Shown here piece by piece: positions 9,894 through 56,750 of a stretch of DNA of 57,213 nt; the first letter of the stretch is position 1; each line of letters opens with the position of its first letter. The stretch spans positions 1 through 57,213 of the forward strand of contig JBIIGI010000006.1 of the NCBI GenBank assembly GCA_044236545.1, given 5' to 3'. The position numbers and the translations under genes were made by a program. The notes below the pieces were generated by a model. The model was not told where the DNA came from, searched no databases, and saw only the letters and a program-made list of their open reading frames with translations. This DNA is from Chthoniobacterales bacterium. GTDB lineage: Bacteria; Verrucomicrobiota; Verrucomicrobiia; Chthoniobacterales; UBA6821.

Positions 9894-10043
9894 GGTCGAG
9901 AATTCAGGGATATCCGATGTATTGAATCCGGAATCATGAATCACAGGAAGGGAATTGAGGGTGGATCCTGGATAAAGCGAGGCGGGGCGAGTGAAGCACG
10001 GACAGTCCCGTCTGATGAACCGGAACGCATCTCGCGTCGGCAC

Positions 10044-10120
10044 TTCAGCCTTCAGCCTTCAGCCTTCAGCCTTCAGCCTTCAGCCTTCAGCCTTCAGCCT
10101 TCAGCCTTCAGCCTTCAGTC
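10044..10120. repeat. Heptamer microsatellite (TTCAGCC)x10 plus TTCAGTC
   Basis: Counted directly. It overlaps the last codons and the stop of the CBS-domain gene (LKAEG*). Confidence 0.97.
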
Positions 10121-20245: not shown

Positions 20246-23002
20246 ATGGAGACACCTTCCAAAACGGAGCCGGTCCACGAGACCGTGCCTTGGCATGCGC
20301 TGGCAACCGACGACGTGCTCAGGCAACTGGGCACTCGAGTCGATAAGGGACTTGATTCAGCGGAAGCCTCGAGTCGTCTCCGAAAACACGGGCCGAATCT
20401 TTTGCCCTTGGGCAAAAAGCAGAGCTCCTTCATGCGGTTTTTCCTGCAATTCAATAATGTACTGGTCTACGTGCTCATTGGCGCCGGGGTACTCAAGGTC
20501 GCACTTGGTCTTTGGCTCGACGCGTCGATCATTCTCGCCGTGGTCTTTCTCAACGCACTCCTCGGCTTCCTTCAGGAGGGCAAGGCGGCCGAAGCACTGG
20601 AGTCGATTAGCAAAATGCTGTCGACTGATGCGCGTGCCGTCCGCGACGGCGAAACACGCATGATCGCGGCCGATTCGCTGGTGCCTGGCGATGTGATCCT
20701 GCTCGAGTCGGGTGACAAGGTTCCTGCCGACCTGCGCCTGATCGAGGTCAAGAATCTGCGCACAGAAGAGGCCGCCCTGACGGGCGAATCGGTACCCGCC
20801 GACAAGTCCACTCAAGCCGTGGATGCAAATGCCACGGTCGGCGACCGTGAGAGCATGGTTTTCTCAGGGACAATGGTTGTTTCCGGCCGCGCGACGGGAG
20901 TGGTGGTGGCCACCGGCAGCCACACCGAACTGGGACGCATCAACGCATTATTGGCCAACGTCAACACGCTTGAGACGCCTCTGCTGCGCCAGATCAAGAA
21001 GTTCGGTTACAAGATCACGGGCGCCATCGCGGTCGTGGGGGCACTGGTATTCGCCTTCGCCCGCTGGGGCCGGGGGATGGAGTTCGTCGACGTTTTTCAG
21101 GCCGTCATCGGTATTGCCGTTTCGATTATTCCAGAGGGCCTTCCTGCCATCATTACCATCACGCTGGCCATTGGAGTGCAGCGCATGGCCCAACGCAACG
21201 CCATCATTCGCCGGTTGCCGGCGGTGGAGACGCTCGGCTCGGTGTCGCGCATCTGCTCGGACAAGACCGGCACACTGACGCTGATGGAAATGATGGTGGT
21301 CTCAGCCGTCACGGCCGAGGCAAGTTACCAGATCACTGGCGACGGCTATGATCCGGAGGGCAACGTCACCCTGGACGGCAAACCCCTCCGTGAGGACTCG
21401 GTTCTGCAACTCGTCGGCCGCGTCTCCATGCTATGCAATGACGCCGAAATCCGAAAAGAAGAAGGCGTCTGGAAGGTTGAGGGCGACCCAACCGAAGGCG
21501 CTCTCTACCCCTTCGCAAGCAAGCTTGGTATCGAGCGTAGTGTCGAGAAAACCGCCTACAAGCGCGTCGATTCGATACCGTTCGAGTCCGAGCACCGTTT
21601 CATGGCAACCCTCAACGAGGGTGCCGATGGCAGGCAGATGTTGCTCGTCAAGGGGGCTCCTGAGGTGATTCTCGAGCACTGCAGCCACCAGCAGTTGCAG
21701 AACGGCGAGATCGTCCCAATCGATCTCGCCTATTTCGGAAAGGCGTCGGACAAGTTGGCCGGACAGGGCGAGCGTGTACTGGGCATTGCCTGGCTCGCGA
21801 ACCCCGCCGGTCTCGACGTCGGCAACCTTGCGGCGGCTGATTTGCCGCGCAATCTGGTACTACTCAGCCTGATCGGTCTGCTAGATCCGCCACGCAAGGA
21901 AGCGATTGAGGCGGTTAGGGAGTGTCACACTGGAGGCATCCGAGTGACAATGATCACCGGTGACCACAAGATCACCGCGGCGGCCATTGCCAAGATGCTC
22001 GGTATCGGCGATGGCAAGACTGCGATGGAGGGTGTCGAGGTCGAGAAGCTCGATCAGGCCGAACTGCGCGAGTGCGTCAAGAGTGTCGACGTGTTCGCCC
22101 GGTCCAGCCCCGAGCACAAGCTGCGGTTGGTGGAGGCGATTCAGGCAAACGGTCAGATCGTCGCCATGACCGGCGATGGAGTCAACGACGCTCCCGCCTT
22201 GAAGAAAGCCGATATCGGCGTAGCCATGGGCATCAAGGGCACTGAGGTCACCAAGGAGGCGGCTGAAATGGTACTCGTCGACGATAATTTCGCGTCGATC
22301 AGTGCCGCGGTTAAGGAAGGGCGCACGGTGTACAATAACATCGAGAAGGCGATCCTGTTCCTGCTGCCGACCAATCTAGCACAGGGCCTGGTGATCATGG
22401 TCGCAATCATCTTGGGCATTACGATGCCGATCACGACGCCGCAGATTCTGTGGGTCAATATGATCACCTCCGTGGCGCTTGGTCTGGTTTGCGCATTCGA
22501 ACCGCACGAACTGAATGTGATGAAGCTCCCCCCACGGGCCGTGGACCGTCCTCTGCTGACCGGCTTTGGCCTGTGGCGAGTGATCTTCGTCGGCTTGGCA
22601 CTGGTTGCCTATACGCTGTGGGCGTTCTTCTGGATGAAGGGGCAGAATGCATCCGACGCGGCGGCACGCACGGTGGCCGTCAACGCGATCACCATCGGCC
22701 AGTGCTTCTATCTGCTCAACAGCCGATACCTGATCGACAGTTCGGTATCCATACGGCCGCACCTCGAAAACAGGTACCTTCCCATCGGCATTGGCGCGGT
22801 CATTGTGCTGCAGCTGATGTTCACATACCTGCCGTCGCTGCAACGCATCTTCGAAACCGAGTCGGTGCAACTTTATGTGTGGCCGTGGCTGCTTGGCGGT
22901 GGCCTGCTGTTCTTCTTCTTTGTTGAGGTTGAAAAAACGGTGATCCGAATTTATCGCAAGTCCTCAGCGTCTGCTGCGGTTTCCTCCAGCGGTGTTTCCT
23001 GA
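20246..23002 (+). CDS. Cation-transporting P-type ATPase (P2A/Ca2+-type)
   Basis: TGES, PEGL, CSDKTGT, KGAPE and TGDGVNDAP motifs. Confidence 0.95.
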   Translation: METPSKTEPVHETVPWHALATDDVLRQLGTRVDKGLDSAEASSRLRKHGPNLLPLGKKQSSFMRFFLQFNNVLVYVLIGAGVLKVALGLWLDASIILAVVFLNALLGFLQEGKAAEALESISKMLSTDARAVRDGETRMIAADSLVPGDVILLESGDKVPADLRLIEVKNLRTEEAALTGESVPADKSTQAVDANATVGDRESMVFSGTMVVSGRATGVVVATGSHTELGRINALLANVNTLETPLLRQIKKFGYKITGAIAVVGALVFAFARWGRGMEFVDVFQAVIGIAVSIIPEGLPAIITITLAIGVQRMAQRNAIIRRLPAVETLGSVSRICSDKTGTLTLMEMMVVSAVTAEASYQITGDGYDPEGNVTLDGKPLREDSVLQLVGRVSMLCNDAEIRKEEGVWKVEGDPTEGALYPFASKLGIERSVEKTAYKRVDSIPFESEHRFMATLNEGADGRQMLLVKGAPEVILEHCSHQQLQNGEIVPIDLAYFGKASDKLAGQGERVLGIAWLANPAGLDVGNLAAADLPRNLVLLSLIGLLDPPRKEAIEAVRECHTGGIRVTMITGDHKITAAAIAKMLGIGDGKTAMEGVEVEKLDQAELRECVKSVDVFARSSPEHKLRLVEAIQANGQIVAMTGDGVNDAPALKKADIGVAMGIKGTEVTKEAAEMVLVDDNFASISAAVKEGRTVYNNIEKAILFLLPTNLAQGLVIMVAIILGITMPITTPQILWVNMITSVALGLVCAFEPHELNVMKLPPRAVDRPLLTGFGLWRVIFVGLALVAYTLWAFFWMKGQNASDAAARTVAVNAITIGQCFYLLNSRYLIDSSVSIRPHLENRYLPIGIGAVIVLQLMFTYLPSLQRIFETESVQLYVWPWLLGGGLLFFFFVEVEKTVIRIYRKSSASAAVSSSGVS

Positions 23003-23113
23003 CAGAGCTTCTTGGCATCCACCAGACCCTGGGTAATGGGGGGCACAATCCCGCATCTGTTCCTTGATTTCCCTTAAGGAGGGATGAGTGCTAGTCTCTG
23101 ATACGCACCGAGC

Positions 23114-23770
23114 ATGACACCGACTCCTGTTGATCAAGAACGAGATCCGGTTGAACCGCGGCGACTCTCGGTGGAGTTGCAGATCCTCTCGGATTCCGCA
23201 GAGCAATCCGATCTCACCATGAGTGACTTGGTTGATCGGCTTGAAGGGCGCGTCTACACGCTGCTCCTGGTGATTCTCGCCCTTCCCTTCTGCCAACCGA
23301 TCATGCTTCCCGGTCTCTCCACGCCCTTCGGCATGGTGATCGCCCTGCTGGGTCTGCGATTTGCGTTGCGCCAGCATCCATGGCTTCCGCAGCGCCTGCT
23401 CAAGACCCATCTTTCCGGAAAATACCTTCCAAAGATCCTTCACGGGAGCGCCCGGCTCCTCGGGGGAATTGAGAAGCTCCTTCACCCCCGCCTCTCGTTC
23501 CTCTTTGAGTTTCGCCTCACCCAGTTCCTTGCAGGCATGGCTGTTTTCCTCAGCGGCCTGATGCTCCTGCTGCCGCTCCCCATTCCCTTCAGCAACATGC
23601 TTCCCGCGCTGACGGTCGTGCTTGTGGCATCCTCTTTCTCAGAACGCGACGGCGTGACCCTGGGTGCGGGTCTGATCCTCTTCCTGATCTCCCTTGGGTT
23701 TATCGGTGCGATCCTCTTTGGAGGGACAGAGGCGATCACCTGGATCTCCAACGGGTTCGTACGCCGTTGA
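23114..23770 (+). CDS. ExoD family (exopolysaccharide synthesis) membrane protein
   Basis: LALPF..PG.STPFG...PWLP and LPLPIPFSNMLPA...ERDG motifs. Confidence 0.88.
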   Translation: MTPTPVDQERDPVEPRRLSVELQILSDSAEQSDLTMSDLVDRLEGRVYTLLLVILALPFCQPIMLPGLSTPFGMVIALLGLRFALRQHPWLPQRLLKTHLSGKYLPKILHGSARLLGGIEKLLHPRLSFLFEFRLTQFLAGMAVFLSGLMLLLPLPIPFSNMLPALTVVLVASSFSERDGVTLGAGLILFLISLGFIGAILFGGTEAITWISNGFVRR

Positions 23771-23833
23771 ACCCGGCGCGAGAAGATTAATCCGGAATTT
23801 GCATTGGGAATTCCTGAAATAACAGGAGGCCGC

Positions 23834-24157
23834 GTTAAAAGAGTTAAAAAATGAAAATGTTACAAACAAGGCTCTGGGAAGAGTCGCGTAAGATCCCGCG
23901 CATGCGGGACCCAGAGGGCGCCACCGCTTGCCGGGAGGCAAGTGGCGTCAACGTGGATCCGGGAGAGCCCTGACCCGAGATTCGGAAGGGGAGTGACAGG
24001 GAACCCGCCGACAAAAGATGCCTGCATGAGTTCCACTTAGCCTCGAAATTCAGTCCCCTTTTAACTTTTTAACGGTGTAACGCTTTTAACCCTTCAGGGA
24101 CTCACCATCCTGGTGAACGCTCAAACCTGTCAACGCCGCTCTGATGACAATTCTGGG
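23834..24157 (-). repeat. Host repeat (family 3), locus 1: inverted GTTRMAN arrays plus GCGTTCACC-n3-ATGGTG arm
   Basis: Colinear with 30423-30725 and 56581-56736. Interrupted by four-hairpin element copy A. Confidence 0.75.
23864..23951 (-). mobile_element. Four-hairpin mini-element (family 2), copy A, including flanking TT
   Basis: Minus strand reads TT-GACGCCACTTGCCTCCCGGCAAGCGGTGGCGCCCTCTGGGTCCCGCATGCGCGGGATCTTACGCGACTCTTCCCAGAGCCTTGT-TT. The empty site is seen at paralogous loci. Confidence 0.85.
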
Positions 24158-24158
24158 A

Positions 24159-24830
24159 TTAATCCAGCAGATCAGGTCGGCGTTTTTTTGTCGCTTCCAG
24201 GGCCTGTTCAGCCCGCCATGTGGCGATTGCCCCGTGATTTCCCGATAGCAGGATCGGAGGAACGCCCCAGCCCTGAAACTCGACCGGACGCGTGAAGTGA
24301 GGGTGGTCGAGCAATCCGGTCTCGAAGGACTCGGTGACCGCTGACTGATCATCTCCCAGGACTCCGGGCACCAACCGCACGATGGCGTCGGTCAGCACCA
24401 GCGCCCCCAGAACGCCGTTGGTCAGGATGTAGTCGCCGATTGAAATCTCGTCGTCGACAAGGTGATCGGCCACGCGTTGGTCGACACCCTCGTAATGCCC
24501 GCAGAGGAGGATGAGATGCCGCGCCTTGGCATACTCGCGGACGATCGGTTGCTTGAGCGGCCTTCCCTGCGGGGTGAGGAAGATCACTTTGGTCTCCGGT
24601 CGGCGGAGTTCGGCCAGCGCCTCCGCGATCGGTTCGATCTTCATGACCATGCCGGGGCCGCCGCCGTAGGGTGCGTCGTCGACCGTGCGATGGCGGTCAT
24701 GGGTCCAGCGCCGGAGGTCGACAGCCTCCAACTTCACCAAACCGGCCTCCTGGGCGCGGCCAAGGATACTCTCCCGGAGGACTCCCTCGGCGATGGAGGG
24801 GATGGGTGTCAGGATCTGGATCTCGATCAT
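24159..24830 (-). CDS. trmD: tRNA (guanine37-N1)-methyltransferase
   Basis: VDDAPYGGGPGMVMK, LTPQG, CGHYEGVDQR, SIGDYILTNG and LSGNH motifs. Confidence 0.97.
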   Translation of the reverse strand: MIEIQILTPIPSIAEGVLRESILGRAQEAGLVKLEAVDLRRWTHDRHRTVDDAPYGGGPGMVMKIEPIAEALAELRRPETKVIFLTPQGRPLKQPIVREYAKARHLILLCGHYEGVDQRVADHLVDDEISIGDYILTNGVLGALVLTDAIVRLVPGVLGDDQSAVTESFETGLLDHPHFTRPVEFQGWGVPPILLSGNHGAIATWRAEQALEATKKRRPDLLD

Positions 24831-24895
24831 TTTGAAAAGTTGGAGCTCAACGGTGGCTAGCCATCATGGAAAGAGCCACCTAGGATGCAAGTCCC

Positions 24896-26869
24896 GTGTC
24901 TTCCTCCCGCCCCGCGAACAAACGCCGCAGTGCACCCTCTCCACGGGAACGCCGCGGCTCCTTCCTGATCACGCTGATCAAGCTCGGCTTCGCGGCACTC
25001 CTTCTCTGGGTGCTTGTCGGTGTTCTCTACTATCTCTGGGCGCTCACCTTCGACCTCTCGACGATCGGTCAGATGCCGCAGCGATCGGCGATTTATGACC
25101 GGACCGGGACATTCTACAGCCGGACCATGGGGGAGAACCGCGTCGTGGTCCCCTACGACGGTGTCTCGCCGAATTTCGTCAAGGCCCTGATCAGCCGCGA
25201 AGACTCGAGATTCTACGAGCACCGCGGAATCGACCCTCTCGGCATCGCACGTGCGGCCGTGCGGAACCTTCTCATTGGCGGGATGAAGGAGGGGGCCAGC
25301 ACGATCACCCAGCAGTTGGCCCGCAACAGCTTCCCGCTCGGCGGCAAGACCTTCAACCGCAAGTTCCTCGAGGCGGCCATGGCCTTCCGCATCGAGATGG
25401 AGATGACCAAGGAGAAGATCCTCGAGCTCTACATGAACCGCATCTACTTCGGCTCCGGTCTCTACGGGGTCGAGACGGCGAGCCAGGCCTACTTCGGAAA
25501 ACCCGCGGCCGACATGAGCCTCTCGGAGGCGGCCCTTCTGGCGGGACTGATCCGCAGCCCCAACCGTTACTCTCCTTTCAACAACCTCGAGGCATCCCTC
25601 AGGCAGCGCAATGTCGTGCTCGGAAGGATGGAGGAACTCGAACTCATCACCCATGCGGAGCATGAGAAGGCGCTCCGGGAGAAGATCGCACCGCGCCAAC
25701 GCCAGCTTGTGAACCCCCTCAACAGCTGGGCCGTCGACGCGATCCTCCACGAACTAGAGCAGGTCGTCTCCCCCTCCAAGATCGACGAGGGAGGTCTCCG
25801 GATCGACACCTCGATCGACGCGGGGATGCAGCAGGCCGCCGAGCAATCGCTGGCACGACGGCTTACGGAAGTGGAGGCGCGGCCCGATTTCCGCCAGCAA
25901 CACGCGCCACCGAAACCTCCCAAGCCGTCAAAAGGCAAGGGCAAGGGAATCATCCCCCAGCCCGTCCAAACCGTCGAGCCCCCCGAACCACTTCAGGCCG
26001 CCCTCCTTGCCATCGACAACGCCTCCGGCGGCATCACGGCCATCGTCGGCGGGCGCAACTTCGCCGAGAGCAAATACAACCGCGCCCTGGTGGCAACGCG
26101 CCAGATCGGTTCCTCGGCCAAGCCATTCGTCTACGAAGAGGCCTTTCGCAAGGGGGTCATCACCCCGGAGACACCGGTCAGCGACGCCCGGCTCTCGATC
26201 ACGGAACTACCGCCCCGCTCCCCGGCCTACGATCCCCAGAACAGCGACGGCACCTTCGGGAGCGACCTGCCGGCCAAGGAGGGCCTCATCCACTCCCGCA
26301 ACACCATGAGCGTGCGCGTCGGGCTCGCCACCGGTCTCGGAACGGTGGCCTCCATCATGGAAAAACTCGGCCTTGCCGAGGATGTCCCCCGCTACCCCTC
26401 CATCTGCCTCGGCAGCTTCGAGTCGACTCTCAGGAATGTCACAATCGCCTACTCAGCGCTCGCCACCGGCGGATCACGCCTCCACCCGCACCTGATCGAG
26501 CAAGTCACCGATGCCGAGGGGAAGGTCCTCTTCCGGGCCACCCGCGACCGCGTTCCCGTCCTCGACCGGAATGCGGCCCGGGCGACCACGTCGATTCTGA
26601 CCGAGGTCTTCACGCGAGGCACCGCCTCCCGGGCGGCCTCACTCGGCCTGCGCAAGCCCGCAGCTGGAAAGACCGGAACCACCGACCGCTTCGTCGATGC
26701 CTGGTTCCTGGGATACACGGAGGGGCTCACCTGCGGAGTCTGGGTCGGCTTCGACCACCCAAAGACCATCATGCGCGGCGGCTATGGGGCCGAACTGGCC
26801 CTCCCGATCTGGGTCGATGTCATGCAGTCCCCGGCCGCCAATCGCTACGCGGCGGGGCCGTTGCCGTAG
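24896..26869 (+). CDS. Class A penicillin-binding protein (PBP1A family)
   Basis: EDSRFYEHRG, GASTITQQLAR, YMNRIYFG, S-x-x-K (GSSAKPF), SRN and KTGTT motifs. Confidence 0.95.
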   Translation: MSSSRPANKRRSAPSPRERRGSFLITLIKLGFAALLLWVLVGVLYYLWALTFDLSTIGQMPQRSAIYDRTGTFYSRTMGENRVVVPYDGVSPNFVKALISREDSRFYEHRGIDPLGIARAAVRNLLIGGMKEGASTITQQLARNSFPLGGKTFNRKFLEAAMAFRIEMEMTKEKILELYMNRIYFGSGLYGVETASQAYFGKPAADMSLSEAALLAGLIRSPNRYSPFNNLEASLRQRNVVLGRMEELELITHAEHEKALREKIAPRQRQLVNPLNSWAVDAILHELEQVVSPSKIDEGGLRIDTSIDAGMQQAAEQSLARRLTEVEARPDFRQQHAPPKPPKPSKGKGKGIIPQPVQTVEPPEPLQAALLAIDNASGGITAIVGGRNFAESKYNRALVATRQIGSSAKPFVYEEAFRKGVITPETPVSDARLSITELPPRSPAYDPQNSDGTFGSDLPAKEGLIHSRNTMSVRVGLATGLGTVASIMEKLGLAEDVPRYPSICLGSFESTLRNVTIAYSALATGGSRLHPHLIEQVTDAEGKVLFRATRDRVPVLDRNAARATTSILTEVFTRGTASRAASLGLRKPAAGKTGTTDRFVDAWFLGYTEGLTCGVWVGFDHPKTIMRGGYGAELALPIWVDVMQSPAANRYAAGPLP

Positions 26870-27063
26870 TTGGGGAGTAGGGGGATCGGTAATAGGCCTA
26901 TAGGGAATAGGTTATGGGGCGATTCCCTCGGAGACTTCGACGCTTTGAATCGACTTTTTCCCCTTTCAACCCTTCAACCTTTCAACTTTTTCACTCTTTC
27001 CTAAGGGAGTTCTTTCCCTTTCAAAGGGGGCTGTGTATTAGTCGGGCTTATCCATTTTTTCCC

Positions 27064-28254
<1,191 letters not shown>

Positions 28255-28297
28255 GCAACCTTTCCACCGTCACCTTCACCTTTCACTTTTCTCTCCC

Positions 28298-29197
28298 ATG
28301 TCGATCCTCGTCACTCCCGACACCAAGGTACTCATCCAGGGCATCACCGGCAGCTTCGGAGCACGCCACGCCAAGCTCAGCCTCGACTACGGCACCAAGG
28401 TGGTCGCCGGCGTCACCCCGGGCAAGGGAGGCCAGCTCTTCGAGAATCAGGTGCCCATCTTCGACACCGTCGATCAGGCCGTGAAGGAGACCGGAGCAAC
28501 GGTCTCCGCGGTCTTCGTCCCGCCCCCGTTCGCCGCCGACGCGATCCTTGAGGGTGTCGCCGCCGGACTCGACCTTGTAGTCGCCATCACAGAGGGCATT
28601 CCCGTCATCGACATGATGAGGGTCAAGGAGGCCATGAAGGGATCGAAGACCCGGCTCATTGGCCCCAACTGCCCCGGCCTCGTCACTCCCGGCACCGGTG
28701 ACAAGTCCCACGGCGGATGCCGCATCGGCATCGCTCCCGGCTACATCCACAAGAAGGGGAATGTAGGCGTCGTCTCCCGCTCCGGCACCCTCACCTACGA
28801 GGCCGTCTGGCAGCTCACCACCCGCGGTTACGGCCAGAGTACCTGCGTCGGTATCGGCGGCGACCCGATCAACGGCACTTCCCACCTCGACATCCTCAAG
28901 ATGTTCAACGAGGACCCCGAGACCGAGGCGATCATCATGATCGGCGAGATCGGCGGCACCGCCGAGGAAGAGGCCGCGGCATGGGCCGCCAAGCATTGCA
29001 TGAAGCCGATCGCCGGCTTCATCGCGGGAGCCACCGCGCCGGAGGGGCGCCGCATGGGTCACGCCGGAGCAATCGTCAGCGGCGGACACGGCACGGCCGC
29101 CAGCAAGATCGCCGCCCTCCGCGAAGCGGGGATCGAGATCGCCGAGACCCCTTCCGACATGGCCGACGCCCTCATCCGCCGGATGAAGCGGGCCTGA
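28298..29197 (+). CDS. sucD: Succinyl-CoA synthetase alpha subunit
   Basis: [20 protein letters not shown] and RMGHAGA motifs. Confidence 0.98.
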
Positions 29198-29237
29198 GCG
29201 AACCTTTTCACTTCAAACCCAACAACCTCTCACTCCC

Positions 29238-30368
29238 ATGCCTGTCATCGCCAAAGGACTCGAAGGTATCGTCGCCAACTCCACCACGCTCAGCGATGTG
29301 CGCGGCGAGGAGGGCATCCTCATCTACGCCGGATACAATATCAACGAACTCGCCGGCAAGGTCAGCTACGAGGAGGTCGTCTATCTACTCTGGCACGGGG
29401 AACTTCCCAACAAGGCCCAGCTTGAGTCCCTGCATCGGGAGCTTGGTTCCCAGCGCGAACTTCCGCAGGGAGTCATCGACTTCCTCAAGTCGGCCCCCAA
29501 GGATGCCAATCCCATGGATGTCATCCGCACGGGTGTCTCCATGCTCGGCCTCTACGACAAGGTGCCGACCGGCGAGATCGATCCCGTGAAGAACCGCCAC
29601 CGCGCAGTCTCCCTGACCGCCAAAGTCGGCGTCATCGCCGCGTACTATCACCGCGCCCGCCTCGGCAAGGATCTCCCACCCGTCCGCACCGATCTCGGTG
29701 AGGCCGCCCACTTCCTCTACCTCCTCAACGGAGAAGTGCCGACCGCCGAGGCCGCAAAGACCCTCGATGTCGCCTACGTCCTCCATGCCGATCACGGCAT
29801 GAATGCCTCCACCTTCTCCGCGCGCGTCACGATCGCCACGCTCAGCGACATCTACTCGGCCGTGACCTCGGCCATCGGCACGCTCAAGGGGCCCCTTCAC
29901 GGCGGCGCCAACGAGGGAGTCATCCACATGCTTCAGGAGATCGGCGAAGAGACCAAGGTCGACGGTTGGGTTGAGACTGCGCTCGCCACCAAGAAGAAGG
30001 TCATGGGCATCGGTCACCGCGTCTACAAGACCCTCGATCCCCGCGCCCCCCACCTCCGTTCCATGGCCGTTCAGCTCTGCGAGCAGCTTGGAGAGGGCAA
30101 GTGGATCCGCATGTCGGAGCGCATCGCCGAACTCATGAAGGAGCGCAAGGGGCTGAATGCCAATGTCGATTTCTACTCAGCGACCGTCTACTACTCGCTC
30201 GGCCTGCCGACCGACATGTTCACACCGATCTTTGCGATCGCCCGGACCTCCGGCTGGACCGCTCATATCCTGGAACAGCTCGTCGACAACAGGCTCTACC
30301 GCCCGCTCAGCGAGTACGTCGGCCCCGCAGTCGGCAAGACGGTGGTTCCGCTCGCGGACCGCGCTTAA
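29238..30368 (+). CDS. gltA: Citrate synthase (type I / 2-methylcitrate synthase-like length)
   Basis: LHADHGMNASTF, GPLHGGANE, MGIGHRVYK..DPR and NVDFYS motifs. Confidence 0.93.
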   Translation: MPVIAKGLEGIVANSTTLSDVRGEEGILIYAGYNINELAGKVSYEEVVYLLWHGELPNKAQLESLHRELGSQRELPQGVIDFLKSAPKDANPMDVIRTGVSMLGLYDKVPTGEIDPVKNRHRAVSLTAKVGVIAAYYHRARLGKDLPPVRTDLGEAAHFLYLLNGEVPTAEAAKTLDVAYVLHADHGMNASTFSARVTIATLSDIYSAVTSAIGTLKGPLHGGANEGVIHMLQEIGEETKVDGWVETALATKKKVMGIGHRVYKTLDPRAPHLRSMAVQLCEQLGEGKWIRMSERIAELMKERKGLNANVDFYSATVYYSLGLPTDMFTPIFAIARTSGWTAHILEQLVDNRLYRPLSEYVGPAVGKTVVPLADRA

Positions 30369-30422
30369 GGAAGCGCTGAATAAATCACATAGAGGCCTCT
30401 GAAAGGCAGTTGCTGATTCTTG

Positions 30423-30725
30423 AACCCAGATTATGCGATAGGGAGGCGGAGACAGGTCTGGATGGTTCACCCGGATGCTGAGTCGTCGGATGGTTAAAAT
30501 CGTTGAACCAAGCATGCTGGAACATGCGCGGTAGATCACGCGCAGTCGTGACCCGTAAGGGCGCCACCGCTTGCCGGGAGGCAAGTGGCGTCAACTGTTG
30601 AAACGTTACAACGTGCTGACAGCAAGCACTATTCCACTCTCAGAACCGAGCCATGATCAGCAAACTTCTTGATGGCGACTTCTCGAATTCAGGTTCAGGG
30701 GTTTCCGGATCCACCTTGTAACATT
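30423..30725 (+). repeat. Host repeat (family 3), locus 2, carrying element copies B and C
   Basis: GACAGGTCTGGATGGTTCACCCGGATGCTG...GGTTAAAATCGTTGAA|B|CTGTTGAAACGTTACA...TCAGGGGTTTCCGGATCCACCTTGTAACATT|C aligns with locus 1. Confidence 0.72.
30506..30594 (-). mobile_element. Four-hairpin mini-element, copy B, including flanking TT
   Basis: Minus strand reads TT-GACGCCACTTGCCTCCCGGCAAGCGGTGGCGCCCTTACGGGTCACGACTGCGCGTGATCTACCGCGCATGTTCCAGCATGCTTGG-TT. Confidence 0.88.
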
Positions 30726-30760
30726 GACGCCACTTGCCTCCCGAGTAGCGGTGCCGCCCC
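30724..30760 (+). mobile_element. Four-hairpin mini-element, copy C (truncated, 5' part only)
   Basis: TTGACGCCACTTGCCTCCCGAGTAGCGGTGCCGCCCC, after which similarity is lost. Confidence 0.75.
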
Positions 30761-30803
30761 CTCACATCGGGATGGGGGGGCAGGCATGGGCGGGAAGCAT
30801 CCC

Positions 30804-33800
30804 CTACTTCATCAGATTCTCGAGCGAGGGATCGGGCGGTGCTCCAAGTTCCACGGCCTTGGCATAATGCTTTCTCGCCATCATTTTGGCGGGTGGCTTG
30901 CCGGTGGCGTAGATGACCGCAAGATTGAAGTGGGCGTCGGCATAGCGGGGATTGATCTCGATTGCCTTCATGATCTCGCTTTCACCGGCCTTTCCCTTGC
31001 CGGAAGCGGCAAGAACGATACCGAGGTAGTTGTGGGCGGTGAAATCCTCCTGATTTACAGTCACTGACTTTCTGAGCACTTTTTCAGCATCCGAAAGACG
31101 CTCCTGACGATAATGGACGATTCCCAGCGTGGTGAGGGCAAAAGAACTATCGGAGGTCTTTTCGGAAGCTTTCCTGAGCACCTCCTCGGCCTCCTTCAAC
31201 TTGCCGAGCTGAAACTCCACCACGCCGAGGTTGGAGAGGGCGAAGTAGTCATCGGGATTAAGTTTGAGGGCTTCCCGAAAAGTGCTTTCCGCCTGCAGGT
31301 AATCCTGGCGCTCGAACTCATCCTTGGCCCTGGCCAGCAGTTCCTTGAACTGTCCCTGCCAGGGGGCCGCCGCATCGGCCGGCGCGGACGAGTCACCCTT
31401 ATCGGCGCCTTGCTCAAGCTGCCCCGATGAAGTGGCTGCAGCTTTTTCACCAGCCTGATCCGCCGCTGGATTCGTAACAACACCCGCTGCCTTGTCGCCC
31501 TTTTTTTGTAGTTCCTTGGCGGCGTTCTTGGATTCGTCCTGCGGGATGGATTTCTGGATCGGGGCCGCTATGGAAACCTCCATCTTCCCCCCGCCATCAT
31601 CCGAGATAACGAGTTGCTGATCCTTGAACAGGGCACGCTCTTCAGGCGTCAGTTTGACGGTCGGGACGGAAAGGACTGTGATCTGGTCGGCAAGGGTCTG
31701 CGACTCGACGTTGAGCCTCTTGAGTTCCTCTTCCATCAGGCGCCGTGCCTGCGCCCTTCGAGCCTCCTCCTTGATTTCACGAAGAACGATTCCCCTGAGC
31801 AGGGTGGTCTCCTCGATGTTTTTTTGGTCGGAGGCATCCCTCCCCTTCCTGAGTTCGACAATTTCGGCGTCCCTCGAGGCCAATTGATCCTGAAGTTCCC
31901 GGAGTCGATCATCACCCACGGATCCCTGCTTCTGGATGGAAACGATTTTCTGATTGGCCTCGGCAAGTTCCGATTGGAGCTTTTCAGTTTCCAGACGAGC
32001 CTCGGAGAGGGCCTTTTCCTTCTCCTTGAGCGCCTTCTCCTGCTCGGGTTGGGCCCTGGAAAGCTCGGCGATGCGGCGCTGGGATTCCTCGTGGTTCCTG
32101 GCATTGAGGTCGATCTGATGCTGAAGATTCGTCAACTGTTCACGCAGGCCCGAGGCATCCTGTCCCTGATCCACCATGAGGGAAATCCGCCCAAGCGTGG
32201 TTTTCAACTGCTCCTGGAGAGAGCCGTTTTGCTGCTGGAGAAGTTCCTGGAGATTCTTGGAAGCGACCGCCTTGCGCTCACCCTCGGCTCTAGCTGTTGC
32301 GGCGATCTTCTCCGCCTCGGCAATCTTGTTTTTGGAAACTTCCAGGGACTTCGTGTTTTCGGCCATCCGTGCCTTGAGTTCAGCGATCTCCCTGTTCAGC
32401 GGAGCGACGGCACCGGCCTCCTTCGCGGCGGCTTCGAGCGCCTTCGCCGACTGATCCAGCTTGGAAAGAAGGCGCGTCCTCTCCTCCTCGAGCGCGGCAC
32501 GGTCGGCCTCACCGTTCCGCTCGATCTTGGCAAGACGCTCTTTGGCATCCTGTTCAGCCTTGGCGGAGGACTGCGCCTCGCTCCTTGACCTTGCGAGTTC
32601 CTTTTCAGCCGATCCGGCACGCTCCTGGAGACGGGCGATGGTCTTTCGGAATTCCTCACCCTCCTCCTCCAGACCCTTCACTTTGGAAGCCTCTCGAGCC
32701 GCTTCGGAAAGACGGGCGATTTTCTCCACCAGCACCGCCCTCTCTTCCTCGGCAACCTGAAGGTCGGCGACGGAGTTCTTGGCAAGCGTCTCGCTTCGGG
32801 AGAAGCCGGACTGTAGTTCCTTGAGACGCTCGCGCAGCGGAGCTGTTTCGTCGGCTTGTTTTTGGACAGCGGCCAGTTTTTCCGTAGCCTGAATGAGTTT
32901 CTTTTCAAGGTCCCCGCTGCGTGAACCCGATTCCTTGGCAACCTGCTCGGCATGCTCCAGCTTGAGACGCTGTTGTTCCATCGACTCCCGGCCGCTCTCG
33001 ACTTCCTTTTTCAGTTGTTCGTACTTCTGCCTGGCTTCCTCACCACCCGCCACTTTTTCACGGGCCTCGCGGAGTTGCACGACCAGCGCGGCATTTTCCT
33101 CGGCGGCTTTTTTAGCACCCACCTGATACTGCTCCTCCACGGCCAGTTTGTCAGCCACCGCTTCATCGAGCTTTTTCTGCAGATCCTTCAGGTCCTTTTC
33201 CCAGGAGGCGCGGGCCTTAAGATCCCGTTTCAGGTCGGAAATCGTGCGATTGGCCACATCAAGTTTGTTGGTCAGGTCGGAAAATTTTTCCGTCCTCTGC
33301 GCATCCTCCAGATCCTTGGAGCGGGTCTTCTGTGAAATGAGCGCCTCCTTGGCTTCCTTCAGTTCCCCCTTGAGCTCCTCGAGTTGCCTCTTCAGGCGCC
33401 TCACGTCTCCGGATGAATCTGCAGGAGCCTGCGTGGCCGTCCTCTGAGGCGCCGAAGGGGGGGTGATCGTGATGCTCGGAACGGGGGAATGTTCCTCCGG
33501 AGTCATGACATCGGGAGCCTGCTCGGATGATGCCACGGAAACGGAGTCCGTGCCGCTGGCCTGCAGACGGTCAAGGCTCTCGCGGATCTTCTTGAGGCGG
33601 TATTCGACGACCGGCTTTTGCCACGTGGGATCGTTCTTCCCGATGGAAACCAGAAGGCTTTCCGCAAAGCGGTATTTCTTCACCGCCTCCGCTGTGTTCC
33701 CCGAGCGTTCCAGCTTTTCCCCCTGCTGATACCCCTGGTAGGCGGAAAGGAATTGCTCCGAGGGATCGGCGGCGGCAAGCGTCGTGACACCAGCGGCCAG

Positions 33801-35951: not shown

Positions 35952-36112
35952 ATACCAAGTCCCAATGGGAATCGGACTCAAGCGGCGATGGAGTTTTGGC
36001 GAGTGGCTAGGCGGAAGACCGACGGCTATCTAATGATAACCGGAGGGATGACAACAACGCCACAGGCCAAAAGAACGAGCCGAAATGGATGATTCCTATT
36101 GGTAGTTGGTAT
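35952..36112 (-). mobile_element. MITE family 1, copy 2 (TIRs ATACCAAgtcccaatgggaatc / gattcctattggtagTTGGTAT)
   Basis: About 22-bp imperfect TIRs. Homologous to 2711-2878. Confidence 0.87.
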
Positions 36113-38514: not shown

Positions 38515-38683
38515 GGAATTCATAAACCCGTAACTCCCCTTTCCCGGACCTTCGGGTACCTAATGCAATTTTAGGGATAAATAATGATGATTCCTAATTG
38601 ACAAATCGAATTTGAAAACAAGCATTGGAATAACAGTCATTTATTCCCCCTCCGGTTCAATCAATTATCAACCCCCTTTCCCT

Positions 38684-41600
38684 ATGAAGCATTCCTCACG
38701 ATCCACCCGAACTTTTCATGCACTGGCAGCCTCCCTCTTGCTGATGCCATTGGGACAACTTTCCGCCCAATACTATTATCAACAATTCGATGCACCCCAG
38801 TCCTCGGTCGGCGCCGACAACTCCTCCATCATCGGGGTCTCCGGCACGAATGCTCTGGGAACCTTCGTGAAGGGGAATAACGGACCGTTCAGCTACCTCT
38901 TCGACGGATCCAACTACACCGTCATTGACAATACCAATGCCGCCTTCCCCGGCACCTTTGCCACGGGCGCCTCGTCCGGCGGAATCGTGGGGAACAACAA
39001 CTTCACCAACGGCGCATCGCCGTCGACCTTCGGTTTCCTCACATCAGATGGCATCACATTCACCACGATCTCTGTTGATAGTCAGAATACTCGCCTTTCC
39101 GGAATCACCGGCACCATCATCTATGGTTCCTACGGTGACAATGAGGCACCCTTTTTCACCACGTCCACAACTACGGGATTCCCTACCAAGGTTTCCATCC
39201 AAGGGGCTTCCTCCGCGACCATCCAGGGAGTGGGCGTTGATAACCAGTTGTTCGGAACCTATGCCAATGGAGGTGGGACCTATGGATTTCTGACAAGCAA
39301 CGGGACCCCCCCAACAACGATCAACGGACCTGCCGGTTCGGAGGGTAAAGTTGAGGCACTTCTTGGCATCTCGGCAGACAATGGTTTGGTGCTTGGATTA
39401 CTTTCCAACAACGCCGGGTTCATCACGCCGCTTGCCGGCGGAGCCTCCATCCCGGTCAATGGTCCAACCAACGCAACTCCAGGCACTGCCACGCTTATCT
39501 CCCCAATCGGCAATGACGCCCTTGGCGCCTACTACGTTGCTGGGAATGAACGACTCGCGGCATTCGTCACGGCAAACGGGACGAACTATAGCGTCGCCTA
39601 CGGCCCGGGTGATCTTGGAATTGAATCGCTGGTCGGCGCCTACAGTTCCGCCATCGTCGGCAATTTCAACACCAACGGGAATCTAGCAGGCTTCCTCGGC
39701 TTGCAGAACATCAGTGGGTTCGACTACCTGACTCTCTCAGGCCCGACGAATGCGACATCACTCAGCATCACGAATATTCTAGGCCAGACTCTCACCGGAA
39801 ACTACAGCGACACCGACGGGATTCCGCACAATTTTCTGCTCTATCCGAATCTGACCAACAACTCCATTACCCCCGTCTACATCACCGTGGATGGCCCCCC
39901 TGACTCTACAGTCATTACGGCGATCTCAGGATCCTATACCGTCGGCTCTTTCACCAACAGTTCTACGGCCACCCAGCAATGGTTCTATGCACTGGGAACC
40001 AATTCCACGACGATCACTCCCCCGGATTCCGCCCCTGAATCGGTTCAAGCAATCGGCTTGGCTGGAACCAATGCTGTCGGAACGTATACCGATACAAATT
40101 CACAATACCTCTACGGCTACCTCTTCAACGGGAGTAACTACACGACCATCTACGGCCCGGAGGGCACCAATGGTAGCGGAATCCTCACCATTGATGCCGT
40201 GTCCGGCGGCAGCATCGCCGGCACCTATTCCGATGCCAATGGTGTCATCAGGGCCTTTGTCACGACAAACGGCGTGAGCTCTACTCCGGTCTCGCTTCCT
40301 CCAGGATGTGATCCAAACGCTGGAATCTCCACGGTCAATGGGGTCAGCGGCACGACTGTTGTCGGGACTTACACTGATATTGAAGGAAATCTTTACGGCT
40401 TCCAAGGTAGCGCCAAAGTCACTGGTCCCGGCGGCCTTGTGGAGGGTGCATCCACGTTGTTGACGATCAACGGAATCAACGGCTCTTCGATCGTTGGAAC
40501 ATACACAGATCCAGTGACATCCGTCACATATGGATTCTCCGGATCATCCAAGATTATGGGTCCTCTGGGCACCGACGGCGTGGGGATCAGCACCATCGAC
40601 ATCGTCTCCGGCGGGAGTGTTGCCGGAACATACATCGACTCGAATATCAATGATCCTGAAAACCCCGGAACCGGCTTGACCTATGGTTTTGTGACGGCCG
40701 ACGGTGGTAAGAATTACAACACGGTGATCATGGGCCCGGACGAAACTCTCGGCATCAACTTGATCAAGGGCGTTTCCGGAAATCTGGTGATCGTTCAATG
40801 CACTGATGCCGAAGGGAACGAACCGTGCTATGCCTATGACGGCACCGCTTACGCGATCATTGACGTCCCTTCATCACAACCCTATTCCACGGTGGTCAAC
40901 GGCGTTTCCGGCAACACCATCTTCGGTTCATACACTGATGTCTACGGCCTGAGCCATGGATTCACGGCCTACACACGCGGGGACCAGTCGATCACCTTCA
41001 ACTACTTCCCGGCATCACCGGGAGTCTTCAACCTGAACGCGACGGCCTCCTCGGGCCTATCCGTCACCTATGTGCGATCCGGGGACACCCAGAGCGCAAC
41101 CCTCTCCGGATCAACGCTCACATTCACCAAACCCGGCACCGTCTCCGTAACAGCCAGCCAGGCAGGCAACCCGGACTTTTCCCCGGCGGATAATGTGACC
41201 AACACGTTCACCATGCTCGCGCAGGAGATCCTCACCAATAACTTCGTGACTCCGAATCTGACATTTGGAGCCAACACCACGATATCCAATCCCCCGACCT
41301 CCAGCGCCGGACTTCCCGTGACGCTTTCCGTTTCCGGTGACGCCATGCTCCAGGGGAACACCATCAGGCCGTTGAAAGCTGGAACGGCCGTTCTGTACGC
41401 AAATCAGGCGGGAACAGCCACCTACAACCCCACAAATTATTTCCCAGCCACACAGGTTGCATTCCCCTTGGTGATCGGTAAGTCCGCACAGACGATCGGG
41501 GCGTTTCAGCCGATCCCACAAAAATACTTCGGTGACCCACAATTCTCAGTAGTCCCCCCGACCTCCAGCTCGGGGCTCCCCGTTACCCTCGCCGTCTCCA

Positions 41601-44600
41601 ACGCCACCATTTCAGGAAACATCATCACGCTGACAAAGACCGGAACCGTGACAGTGTCCGCCAGTCAACCCGGCGATGACAATTATCTGGCCGCCACACC
41701 GGCAGCAACCACCTTCACAGTCCTCCCGGGAATCCAGACGGTATCAGCCTTCTCCTCCATCGGAACCCAGACGTTCTCAACCAACGGTTTCACGATTGTC
41801 CCCCCGACCTCCAGCGCGGGAACACCGGTGACCATCAATGTCGTCAACGGCACCTACAGCAATGGAATTGTGTATCCTTCCGGAGCCGGCGTGGTGACAT
41901 TGCAGGCGTTCGCGGAGCCATCCGATAACTACGGCCCGGCAAGCAACACCCCGGTCTCCGTGGTTGTGAACAAGGCCCAGTCATTCCTCTCCGCCTTCAC
42001 CCCGATTGCGAACATCACGGGAACAAACACGGCGGCGGTTCCGGTGACCCCTCCCACCTCACAGAACCCGAATGTCCCGGTGGTCGTTTCCGTGGTGAGC
42101 GGACCGGCCTTGTATGATTCCAACAGCAGTACCGTCAACGTGACCAACGCTGGCCTCGTCACCCTGCAGGCCACACAGGCGGGCGATGCGAATTACCTCT
42201 CCGCCTCGCCTGTCTCGACCTCCTTCTCTGTCGGCAGGAGCAATCAGACATTCACCAACGGCACCTTCGGACCGTTCGACGATCGGCCCTTCACTACGAT
42301 TCCGTTCGGCGTCTCCCTCCCCTCCTCCGACTCCCAACTGCCCGTGACCCTCTCCGTTGTCTCGGGACCCGCCGTCGCGGCGGGAACCAACGTCACCCTG
42401 ACCGGTATAGGTCAGGTGACTCTCGCAGCCATCCAGTCCGGAAACACCCAGTATGGCCCTATCCAGACAAACACAACCTTCACGGTCACTCAGGGTGCAA
42501 ACGAGATCTCTGACTTCGCCGCAATCAGCGACAGAAATTTCGGGGACACGCCCTTTTCCATACCCGTCCCGACAGCCTCTTCCGGGCTTCCCGTCACCCT
42601 TTCAGTTCTCTCTGGCCCGGCATCCGTCTCGGGCAATGCCGTGACGCTCTCTGGTGCTGGAATCGTGACACTCGCCGCAGACCAACCCGGCAACGCGAAT
42701 TTTCCGGCCGCTGCACGAAAAACGACTTCGTTCAATGTTTCCAAGGCCACGCAGTCCATCGCGTCCTTTGCTCCGATATCCAACAAAACCTTCGGGGCAC
42801 CGGCATTTGCCATCACCACCCCCTCAAGTTCCTCCGCTCTACCTGTCGCTCTTGTTGTCAGCGGTCCTGCCTATCTTGCAGCTAATCTGCTGAATATCAC
42901 GAACACCGGAACGGTCACCGTGACCGCCAGCCAACCCGGCGATGAGAACTATGAGTCTGCAACTCCAGTAACGGTGAGCTTCAGCGTCAGCAAGGCATCC
43001 CAGACCATAGCCCCGTTCGCCTCGATACCTGCCCAGACCTACGGGGCCCCCTTCCAGGTTACCGCGCCCACCTCGGATTCCGGCCTTCCTGTCCAACTTT
43101 CAGTCCTGGCCGGTGGAAGCATCAGCAACAACATAGTCACGCCGAATGGCGCCGGGATTATCACCATTGCCGCCTCACAACCGGGGAATGAATCGTATGC
43201 GCCGGCTACCGGCGTCACCACCACGGTGACCGTGAAACAGGCCACGCAGGTGCTCTCCCAATTTCCATCCATCGACAATATCGACTCTACCTGGAACACG
43301 GTCGCACCGTTCAAGATCACGCCTCCGAACTCCTCATCACCCAACGCTGTCATCCTCTCCGTGAGGGGGCCGGCAAGAATTGATTCCAACAATGTTCTGA
43401 CACTCACCGGGGACGGGTTGATCACCGTGACCGCCACTCAGCCCGCTGACGCCAACTATCTCTCCGCCACCGCGGTCTCCACCAGTTTCTCGGTCGGAAG
43501 GACCGCCCAGATCCTGAGCGGCTCGCTTGATCAGATTCCAGACAAGACGTTCGGTGATCTTCCATTCACTGTCACCCTGCCCACTGCAGATTCGGGTCTA
43601 CCCGTTTCTCTCACTGTTCTCTCGGGCCCCGCAACCGTAAGGGGTAGTACGCTCACGTTGACCGGCGCCGGCATGGTGACTCTTGCCGCGACCCAACCGG
43701 GCAGCACGAAATATGCTCCTGCCAGCACGGCTCCTGTCAGCTTCAGGGTTGATAAAAAGGCTCAGACAATCAATGCCTTTGGAACAATCAATGACATCCA
43801 GGCCGGATCCAAACCCTTCAAGGTTAGGATTCCAACATCCGACTCAGGACTCCCCGTCACCCTCTCGGTCTTCTCGGGGCCGGCAACCTTGCAGGGTGAC
43901 ACAGTGACTGTCACTGGTGTCGGCCCCGTCATTCTGGTGGCCAACCAACCGGGAAATGACAACTTCTCCCCGGCGAATCCGGTGACCTCCCTGGCTTTCA
44001 ACGTGACCAAGGCATCTCAGGCTGTGTCATTCAGAGCGATCCCCTCCGCTGCGTTTGCAGCACAGTCCTTGGATCTCAGCGCCACGGCAAACAGCGGCCT
44101 GATGGTAACCCAGTTTGAATCCTCCAATCAGGATGTGGCTATCATCAACGGCAACCGCCTTACCGTGATGGGTGCCGGCACCGCAATCATCACGGCGATC
44201 CAGGCCGGGAATGACTTCTATTCCTCGAACAGCGCCAGCCAGAACCTTGTGGTGAGACCGGGATCTCAGACAATCAATGCCTTCCAGCCGATCCCAAGCC
44301 AGTCATTCTCTCCGGGTATGAAGGTTCCGATCACCGCACCGTCCAGCAGTTCCGGCCTACCGGTAACACTGACGCTGACGGCATCCCCTGTTGGCATAGC
44401 CTCCCTGGACAGCAACAATGTTCTCTCTGTCACCGGTGCGGGAAAAATCACCCTGACGGCCAGCCAGCCAGGAAACGCTTCCTACACTGCAGCAAGATCT
44501 GTCACCACAACCGTGGACATCACCAAGGCCCAACAGGTCCTCCAGCCATTTGTCGCGATCGACAACATTACCAACAGCTTCACGTTGACTCCCACGCTGC

Positions 44601-46394: not shown

Positions 46395-46660
46395 TTGACG
46401 CCACTTGCCTTTGCCTCAGCATCTCCCGATGCATTGATGCCGCTTCCCTCCCGGGAAGCCGCGGCACCCTTCGGGCAGCGACAGGGTCGCAGTCTTCCGC
46501 ACACCTTCCCGGGGTGTTTGGTTCGTCCCTTTCCCGACTCTCATCGCAGTAGCGGGACAGGCTACGCCATGCCCCAGGCACTCGGCGGTCGGCAAGCGGT
46601 GGCGCCCTCCGGGTCCCTCATGTGCGGGATCTTCCGCGCCCTCTCCCCCGAGGCTTGGTT
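46395..46660 (+). mobile_element. Four-hairpin mini-element, copy D, split in hairpin-1 loop by a ~180-bp insert
   Basis: TTGACGCCACTTGCCT (46395-46410) ... CGGCAAGCGGTGGCGCCCTCCGGGTCCCTCATGTGCGGGATCTTCCGCGCCCTCTCCCCCGAGGCTTGG-TT (46590-46660). Confidence 0.85.
46434..46523 (+). mobile_element. Four-hairpin mini-element, divergent copy E nested inside D
   Basis: TT-GATGCCGCTTCCCTCCCGGGAAGCCGCGGCACCCTTCGGGCAGCGACAGGGTCGCAGTCTTCCGCACACCTTCCCGGGGTGTTTGG-TT has the same length, linkers and stems, with compensatory changes. Confidence 0.8.
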
Positions 46661-56736: not shown

Positions 56737-56750
56737 CATCAGTCCACCTA

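Follow-up and report, generated by a model that had tools for sequence, protein, structure and literature searches.

How can a non-coding DNA element of about 88 nt, with neither a terminal inverted repeat nor an open reading frame (ORF), come to lie with the same ends in unrelated places of a bacterial genome, and what moves it? The question is raised by a four-hairpin element at positions 23864-23951 of the DNA analyzed here, a stretch of 57,213 nt (the window; contig JBIIGI010000006.1 of the Chthoniobacterales bacterium assembly GCA_044236545.1, referred to below as C26). The genome of the window (G000) comprises 2.47 Mb in 119 contigs with 60% G+C and is estimated to be 95% complete; together with 22 sister species (G005, G012, G018 and others) it forms the genus set of 23 genomes used throughout. 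Found in phages and in unrelated carrier repeats with precise TT junctions, the element is a real, well-defined genus-wide family. The results point to a genus-specific, non-coding, non-autonomous mobile DNA of 85-103 nt, which probably inserts seamlessly at TT in a structure-dependent manner. An initial annotation of the window had proposed a non-autonomous element moved in trans by a structure-recognizing enzyme, and the junctions, the phage copies and the covariation of the hairpins support that proposal.

A profile for nhmmer was seeded on copies A, B and E of the window and iterated across G000 to convergence, and a covariance model (CM) was built from 37 representatives less than 93% alike. 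Both methods confirmed the five copies that had been annotated in the window. These copies, the two larger repeats that carry A and B, and an uninterrupted relative of the A target are as follows.

23864-23951, minus strand: copy A, full length, 88 nt, from 5' TTGACGCC to CCTTGTTT 3' (nhmmer model positions 1-90; CM 93.4 bits)
30506-30594, minus strand: copy B, full length, 89 nt (nhmmer; CM 94.2 bits); the DNA folds into four separate hairpins
30724-30761, plus strand: copy C, the 5' part only (hairpin 1), decayed beyond (nhmmer model positions 1-38)
46395-46409, plus strand: copy D, 5' arm of hairpin 1, TTGACGCCACTTGCC
46577-46660, plus strand: copy D, remainder, from the 3' arm of hairpin 1 to hairpin 4 and CTTGGTT (nhmmer positions 6-90; CM 47.9 bits)
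46434-46523, plus strand: copy E, full length, TTGATGCC subfamily, nested in D (nhmmer; CM 86 bits)
23787-24165, no strand assigned: carrier repeat 1, ~300 bp without A, parts of which are found again, both filled and empty, in G000 and sister species
30420-30726, no strand assigned: carrier repeat 2, ~220 bp without B, with empty and filled copies in G000
56696-56706, plus strand: uninterrupted paralogue of the A target (cacg-TT-gtaac), in a shorter relative of carrier 1 at ~56617-56740

When the whole of G000 was searched, nhmmer returned 86 matches, 67 of them full length (85-103 nt), with 61 distinct sequences, and the CM returned 92, numbers far above what chance would give. All full copies began with TTGACGSC (variants TTGATGCC and T-TGAACGG) and ended with GCTTGGTT (variants CTTGTTT and CTTGCTT), and the constancy of the ends therefore held genome-wide with few variants. 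The description of the complete copies as TTGAC or TTGAT at the 5' end and CTTGG or CTTGT plus TT at the 3' end was likewise confirmed. The two ends of the element are not complementary and hence form no terminal inverted repeat, and it contains no ORF, 88 nt being too short for a gene.

The insertion junctions were read from repeats that exist both with and without the element, a tabulation that the initial annotation had proposed. For carrier 1, eight empty copies in G000 (...ggatccacg-TT-gtaacatttt..., one of them with GTT) were found beside seven filled ones, with fills of 88, 88, 89, 96 and 96 nt and two of 175 nt that contained a further insertion. For carrier 2, four empty copies (...caaccc-TT-caacgg..., three with TT and one with TG) stood beside four filled ones. 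A third carrier family was filled at C59:36696, C59:24902 and C115:23869 and empty at C14:34390 and C112:8319. A fourth, of the 'ggatccaccttgtaaca' type that also carries copy C, held full copies at C97, C109, C8 and C74 and was empty at C3:19006 and C110:11191; copy C itself went into the following TT, which lies 8 nt downstream of the equivalent of the A site. A fifth carrier was filled in G000 (C104 and its relatives) and empty in G018. Across all carriers the empty site had a single TT and the filled site had TT at each end of the element, in one polarity throughout (TT...TT, never AA...AA), and no target duplication beyond the TT was observed.

In a tree of the carrier 1 flanks, the filled C87 grouped with the empty C111 and C14, and the filled C36 with the empty C17 (supports 0.75-0.99). 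Since filled and empty carriers interleave on the tree, the same TT has been filled or vacated more than once. Interleaving of this kind could also result from repeated loss, if the element were not mobile at all and were an ancestral part of the carriers, deleted again and again between its flanking TTs. This explanation is extremely improbable: a repeat of 2 nt is much too short for one and the same precise deletion to recur so often, the same ends occur in four unrelated carriers, in 7-mer arrays, in unique intergenic DNA and in phages, and nested copies exist (E in D).

The claim that A and B represent independent, precise insertions at TT stood in part. The four carrier families and the tree support it, whereas A and B themselves are passengers inside larger repeats, and their high-identity relatives are therefore carrier copies and not separate insertions. 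The empty paralogue of the A site at 56696-56706 was genuine. At 30707-30725, the other paralogue that had been cited, the TT of the A site is indeed uninterrupted, but the last two T's of that stretch are the first two bases of copy C. The alignment obtained by removing B and comparing with another locus was weak, and the match is to a different repeat. A joint in the Logan contigs that runs from 23862 to 23949, skipping 86 nt, was considered as an empty allele of A and rejected, because its sides are 30 nt long and its depth is far above that of the locus, as expected of paralogous empty carriers; Logan contigs over 23000-31500 of the window broke at repeats.

Carrier 1 fills the gap between two convergent genes named by Pfam, exoD (ending at 23770) and trmD (stop at 24159), and has GTTAAAA-type 8-mer arrays in inverted orientation at both of its ends; BLAST found 33 matches of its right part and 19 of its left part in G000. 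Carrier 2 likewise lies between convergent genes, one with a citrate-synthase domain (ending at 30368) and one with TPR (stop at 30804) according to Pfam, and its parts had 17 and 13 BLAST matches. In G018, G012, G009 and G013, empty and filled copies of carrier 2 were also found, the empty ones recognized by flank matches 2 nt apart. Both larger repeats (~300 and ~220 bp) have many further copies in sister species, with up to 99% identity, and judged by these sequences the carriers look more recently amplified than the four-hairpin element inside them. The two parts of copy D are separated by ~170 nt that contain E, and this D+E composite recurs at C50, C10, C19, C35 and C22 with 88-93% identity. 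As all six E-type copies in G000 have the same flanks in common, they go back to one nesting event that was amplified afterwards.

Across the 31 distinct flanks on which the target was analyzed, the 3' TT was followed by C in 23 cases and by G in 8 and never by A or T, and the left flank showed no base preference. The 5' end of the element (TT-G) itself obeys this TT+S rule, which explains head-to-tail copies that overlap by two T's, such as the three at 89643-89731, 89730-89817 and 89816-89905 of contig C4 in G012. In C43 of G000, a 3' fragment and a full copy share one TT, and in C38 three copies lie in a row, spaced by CAGGT. At 9 of the 31 sites, the 5 nt before the element equaled the 5 nt after it (cgacc-TT..TT-cgacc, catcc-..-catcc). 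Most of these nine lie in 7-mer arrays, whose 7-nt period continues if one TT is kept, and matching flanks are thus expected from insertion into the TT of a 7-nt array. This flank test shows that the arrays are in phase and cannot count T's, and the single TT rests on the carrier junctions. Tandem arrays of 7-8 bp, along with a few larger repeats, are favored landing sites.

Such arrays are common in this genome. In the 2.47 Mb of G000, Tandem Repeats Finder (TRF) reported 206 period-7 and 242 period-8 arrays, with units that include TTCGACC, TTCATCC, CCCATCT, CTTCAGC, GTTAAAAG and TTCCTGAG, and one of them, (CTTCAGC) x10.9, lies at 10043-10118 of the window. Periods 7, 8, 14, 15 and 16 together account for 502 arrays, and a copy of the element is touched by only 16 of them.

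The folded structure is as constant as the ends. Read 5' to 3', the element consists of TTGA, hairpin 1 (its stem in two tiers, with a bulge of 3 nt, and its loop TCCC), hairpin 2, which is short, hairpin 3, the motif TCTWCCGCG, hairpin 4 (again with a TCCC loop) and CTTGGTT as the 3' end. Hairpin 1 begins at nt 5 and hairpin 4 stops 6 nt short of the 3' end, and both covary; hairpin 3 is nearly free in sequence and is always a hairpin. The conserved letters are mostly unpaired, namely TTGA, the TCCC loops, the GCN bulge, TCTWCCGCG and CTTGGTT. Pairing was measured over five helices in two alignments. In the first, a MAFFT alignment of the 37 representatives that was not fitted to the model, 88.0% of cells were paired compared with 71.9% in shuffled alignments, two-sided changes were seen in 20 of 25 pairs, and none of 500 shuffles reached the observed values; when the partners were slid by 1-3 columns as a control, pairing fell to 35-46%. 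In the second, 78 distinct copies from many species were aligned to the model and hence lean toward it; here 93.8% of cells were paired compared with 75.4% after shuffling, two-sided changes were seen in 22 of 25 pairs, and again none of 500 shuffles was equal. Single copies folded as single-stranded DNA into the same hairpins, with z scores of -2.3 to -3.9 on either strand (-3.9 for copy A). Hairpin 4 may extend further by pairing of WCCG with TTGG: one column pair was C:G in 49, A:T in 9 and A:G in 8 copies, which gives a hint of such an extension, the A:T cases coming mostly from related phage copies.

The same data bear on whether the structure acts as RNA or as DNA. An RNA under selection would tolerate G:U pairs but not A:C. 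Within the helices, 27 G:T and 24 A:C mismatches were counted beside 776 Watson-Crick cells in the first alignment, and 34 and 39 beside 1711 in the second. When the 86 copies were classed by gene context, which rests on a crude gene call, 24 overlapped mostly short, doubtful ORFs, 12 lay at contig ends and 50 could be classed, as 16 convergent, 7 divergent and 27 tandem. Among the tandem ones, 14 copies were co-oriented with the genes and 13 opposed. The equal rarity of G:T and A:C and the lack of any preferred direction with respect to genes both point to DNA and not RNA. We conclude that the structure of the element acts at the DNA level. No match at the gathering score was found in the window with Rfam 15, and the best match of seven copies had E = 0.24.

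Copies of the element were also found in phages. A pattern search of IMG/VR returned 27 stretches, in which the CM confirmed 23 copies, and five temperate-phage records contained 4, 2, 2, 1 and 2 copies (the last count includes one weak match). Three of the five are rated complete (~32-34 kb), four contain an integrase-like ORF, of which just one exceeds the Pfam cut-off, and genes for a gpA-type terminase, a lambda-type portal and an S49 protease are present in one record. The copies of any one record share a single direction. The inspected copies read tt-TTGACGGCA...CTTGTTT-GACAY, and some phage copies follow a terminator-like hairpin with a T-run. Their presence in phage genomes indicates spread beyond the chromosome, and temperate phages may ferry the element between hosts. 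The possibility that TTGACG or TTGACA serves as a promoter was rejected, as no -10-like hexamer at the right spacing was seen by eye in the phage-copy sequences. A 16-nt mini form, TTGACGG-CTTGTTTGA, consists of the first 7 and last 7 nt of the element with nothing between; it was observed in the left flanks of the copies in phage loci L240, L230 and L244, at a homologous place in related phages, and may be an internal deletion or a footprint.

When the genus was scanned with the CM, as had also been suggested by the initial annotation, 21 of the 22 sister species were found to carry the element, from 3 copies (G007) and 4 (G011) up to at least 103-108 (G018, G013, G009 and G012), the counts for the richest genomes being lower bounds because ~107 candidates were scored per genome. 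No copy was found by the CM in G019, an incomplete genome. Outside the genus, 18 genomes gave two weak matches only (E values of 8.8e-4 and 9.9e-7), one in one of two genomes of a sister genus of the same family and one in one of 16 genomes from other families of the order. A scan for the exact pattern in one genome per prokaryote species found at least 115 stretches; among those listed, the records with several matches were metagenome-assembled genomes (MAGs) of Spartobacteria, Chthoniobacterales or Verrucomicrobiota, largely from fresh water, and single matches in other phyla look like chance. The sequencing runs that hold this stretch are lake-water metagenomes. No match was found among GenBank phages or PLSDB plasmids.

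As to the mechanism, the hairpins would be needed as DNA, displaying the conserved unpaired bases on stems that vary freely, and a trans-acting enzyme of the HUH type (IS200/IS605- or RAYT-like) would move the element by single-strand 'peel and paste'. The strand acted on would be complementary to the one written here; on it the element would land 3' of 5'-SAA-3' and would itself end in 5'-TCAA-3', with all target information lying on one side. Such a reading of the complement is compatible with insertion 3' of a short target, and an exchange over a 2-nt core fits equally well. The reason for favoring an HUH-type enzyme is that four hairpins whose stems vary freely while the unpaired bases stay fixed are explained only by an enzyme that reads structure. 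The assignment is nevertheless tentative and stays somewhat short of an even chance, since no strand bias was detectable (a weak test) and no cognate enzyme was found; the remainder is divided about evenly between an exchange over a 2-nt core and a mechanism as yet undescribed.

In elements of the IS200/IS605 family (PATE-type derivatives), the ends are asymmetric and lack terminal inverted repeats, a hairpin lies just within either end, and insertion is seamless and oriented, beside a very short target that is not duplicated. The element resembles them in its asymmetric ends, in its hairpins inside both ends, in the lack of a terminal inverted repeat and in seamless, oriented insertion, and read on the complement it would land 3' of SAA. 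It differs in having no matching TnpA (the ends of the IS200 copies in sister species are unrelated), a target of just 3 nt, two extra conserved internal hairpins and no visible bias toward one replication strand, the last being a weak test.

A double-strand exchange over a 2-nt core, catalyzed by an IS607-type serine transposase or an IS110-type DEDD recombinase, would account for the junctions in another way: a circle joining ...CTTGG-TT-GACG... would form and then recombine with any TT(S). The TnpA of IS607 is a serine transposase with an N-terminal DNA-binding domain, and TnpB is its usual partner. No IS607-type TnpA was recognized in the genus, the domain order of resolvase-type proteins being examined in G000 alone, where the catalytic domain is N-terminal; TnpB was found in 0 of 23 genomes, and the high-copy genomes G009, G012, G013 and G018 have no gene with a resolvase domain. 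The anatomy of the junctions, with no terminal inverted repeat, no duplication and a shared dinucleotide, nevertheless matches that of IS607 as far as the available parts of two reports describe it (PMC6188088; PMC4058570). According to the part of PMC6188088 that was available, IS607 has GG at both termini and in every target, no terminal inverted repeat, no duplication and minimal further specificity, and TT plays the corresponding role in the element; yet the termini of IS607 are bound in double-stranded form, and that description makes no mention of hairpins. The fixed TT...TT polarity and the head-to-tail copies that share the dinucleotide also favor such an exchange.

The case for an IS110-type enzyme begins with the 2-nt core at both junctions and the lack of a terminal inverted repeat, both of which the element shares with IS110/IS1111. 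Genes of this type (Transposase_20) were found in 4 of the 23 genomes (G005, G012, G014 and G018), and all four are among the 7 genomes with at least 44 copies; as these four are close kin, the association with copy number is not independent. IS110 elements normally have one specific target, whereas the 31 diverse flanks share TT+S only. The IS110 copies that were retrieved have no copy of the element inside them and show no relation to it at their ends, and no IS110 gene was found in G000. An enzyme that reads double-stranded sequence leaves four paired, freely varying stems unexplained. An exchange by either type of enzyme is the main alternative and is considered doubtful. It is unlikely, too, that the element is an orphan mobile DNA without a dedicated transposase of a known family. 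In that case a new recombinase, or else a housekeeping enzyme of host or phage that works on single-stranded DNA, would recognize the hairpin-displayed unpaired bases and insert and excise the element seamlessly at TT, phages would carry it between species, and the 7-8-bp arrays would be landing pads. The IS110 elements themselves are of two types, one of 1271 bp that is 99% identical between G018 (C53) and G012 (C18) and one of 1372 bp that is 98% identical between G005 (C2) and G014 (C225); such identity between species suggests recent transfer or activity.

Other families of small repeats were also compared. In the part of PMC3733652 that was available, a REP is described as one hairpin 20-40 nt long that has an unpaired tag (GTAG or CGTC), most REPs forming inverted doublets, and the CGTC repeats are stated not to be flanked by transposase genes. 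Like these, the element is short, structured, intergenic, present in high copy number and marked by compensatory changes, and it has no associated transposase gene, as is the case for CGTC REPs. Unlike REPs and REPINs, it is a fixed four-hairpin unit of ~88 nt with asymmetric ends, TT junctions and no GTAG tag; its copies stand alone or follow one another head-to-tail and are not arranged head-to-head, and the RAYT-like genes present in few sister species do not adjoin its copies. [quoted passage not shown] The element is likewise small, non-coding, multi-copy and intergenic and shows insertion polymorphism among related sequences, but it has no terminal inverted repeat, shares only TT with its target and keeps a fixed polarity. 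In integron attC sites, complementary inverse-core and core sites form one long imperfect hairpin, whereas the ends of the element do not pair and its four hairpins are local. It works like a non-autonomous element derived from IS200/IS605 or like one of the IS607 kind, yet it cannot be filed under either. No description of the element was found in the literature on repeats of Chthoniobacterales, Verrucomicrobia or Spartobacteria, supplementary repeat lists such as that of PMC3733652 lying outside the scope.

Several findings weigh against the interpretation as a mobile element moved in trans by an HUH-type enzyme, and the first group concerns the enzyme. Among the protein domains of G000, no Y1_Tnp, IS110 DEDD, Transposase_20, Y2_Tnp or TnpB was detected, and its only serine recombinase is an ordinary resolvase/invertase of 185 aa with an N-terminal catalytic domain, next to an Mrr-like gene. 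The longer, transposase-bearing copies that the initial annotation had suggested looking for were not found in G000, where the pairing of orphan 5' and 3' ends gave nothing with coding capacity. Y1_Tnp was detected in 5 of the 23 genomes, and those inspected had unrelated ends or were pseudogenes. G013 contains IS200-like pseudogenes, G006 an intact low-G+C IS200 with unrelated ends, G009 two RAYT-like genes, G012 fragments and G005 a weak match. The RAYT-like genes of G009 have no copy of the element in their immediate flanks, G000 has no RAYT homologue, and no Y1_Tnp was found in the phages. Neither of the enzyme classes named in the initial annotation, IS110 or HUH/RAYT, could thus be tied to the element. 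MAGs often lose multi-copy insertion sequences, and for this reason the absence of an enzyme is weak evidence. An IS200 beside one copy in G013 was examined and rejected as a source, its locus consisting of the element, an 87-nt repeat and then a tnpA fragment with a stop codon. The repeat itself (87-92 nt; L199:1404-1490 in G013) occurs without tnpA in at least 12 places of G000, for example C110:25486, C12:22647 and C14:52910, and may be another small non-autonomous element.

The second group concerns orientation and recent activity. Single-strand transposition predicts an orientation bias relative to replication. Neighboring copies on one contig often point opposite ways, and the comparison of orientation with local GC skew and gene direction gave 43 versus 35, skew being a weak proxy in a fragmented assembly where it correlates negatively with gene direction. 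G000 copies in unrelated flanks are at most 94.5% identical, followed by 90.8% and then 87.5% or less; independent insertions in G000 are accordingly not very recent, and to judge from these identities the element may be quiescent there. No clean orthologous pair of filled and empty sites at a unique locus was obtained, and the one locus examined (C59:17817) was messy: G012 is filled, G013 lacks the element together with a further 47 nt, and the spacers of G018, G009 and G005 are unrelated. The A locus is also filled in G018, with 94% identity over 1.8 kb, while the contigs of G012 and G009 end at the repeat. The spacer at C59:17680-18100 is wholly different among G012, G013, G018, G009 and G005, with flanking genes 92-97% identical, and in G000 and G012 the gene-start motif ATGAGTTCA occurs a second time just past the element.

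The last of these findings is the placement of the phage copies. Each of the 10 inspected lies 13-20 nt upstream of a start codon and, apart from L252, where a crude call places an opposite-strand ORF on one side, between same-strand ORFs. Such uniform placement could reflect a cis-acting use in phages, as opposed to neutral insertion. It could be taken further, to mean that the element is at heart a selected cis-acting module (a terminator, attenuator or protein-binding site) that spread mainly with larger repeats and by recombination. In keeping with this, the phage copies are unidirectional, hairpin 4 with CTTGTTT resembles a weak intrinsic terminator, 16 of the 50 classable host copies lie between convergent genes compared with 333 of all 1804 intergenic spaces, and many high-identity copies are passengers of carriers. 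This alternative is nonetheless very unlikely: the orientation of the host copies is random (14 versus 13), G:T is not commoner than A:C, the copy number ranges from 0 to more than 100 within one genus, and unrelated contexts show exact TT junctions. A function in phages, moreover, would not exclude mobility. Mobility through a structure-reading enzyme remains the preferred interpretation.

Understood as mobile DNA, the element is a clean natural example of structure-dependent mobility without terminal repeats, with junctions that can be read from filled and empty paralogues, in an uncultured freshwater lineage of Verrucomicrobiota and its phages. Enzymes of the HUH, IS607 and IS110 types, which act seamlessly at short targets, are being studied as tools for genome editing. 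TT and a folded donor appear to be all that this family requires, which would make it a useful starting point once the enzyme has been identified. The element and its carriers also break assemblies, many copies lying at contig ends, and turn intergenic regions over quickly between sister species. Copies held in common could serve to link these phages to their hosts.

Two further features of the window were observed. An inverted repeat pair of 149 nt, 89% complementary, lies at 2711-2859 and 35964-36112 with arms 33 kb apart, and weakly resembles the 87-nt repeat beside the IS200 fragment in G013. An ORF of 2396 aa at 38612-45802, with internal repeats ~250-260 nt apart, probably encodes a large repetitive surface protein.

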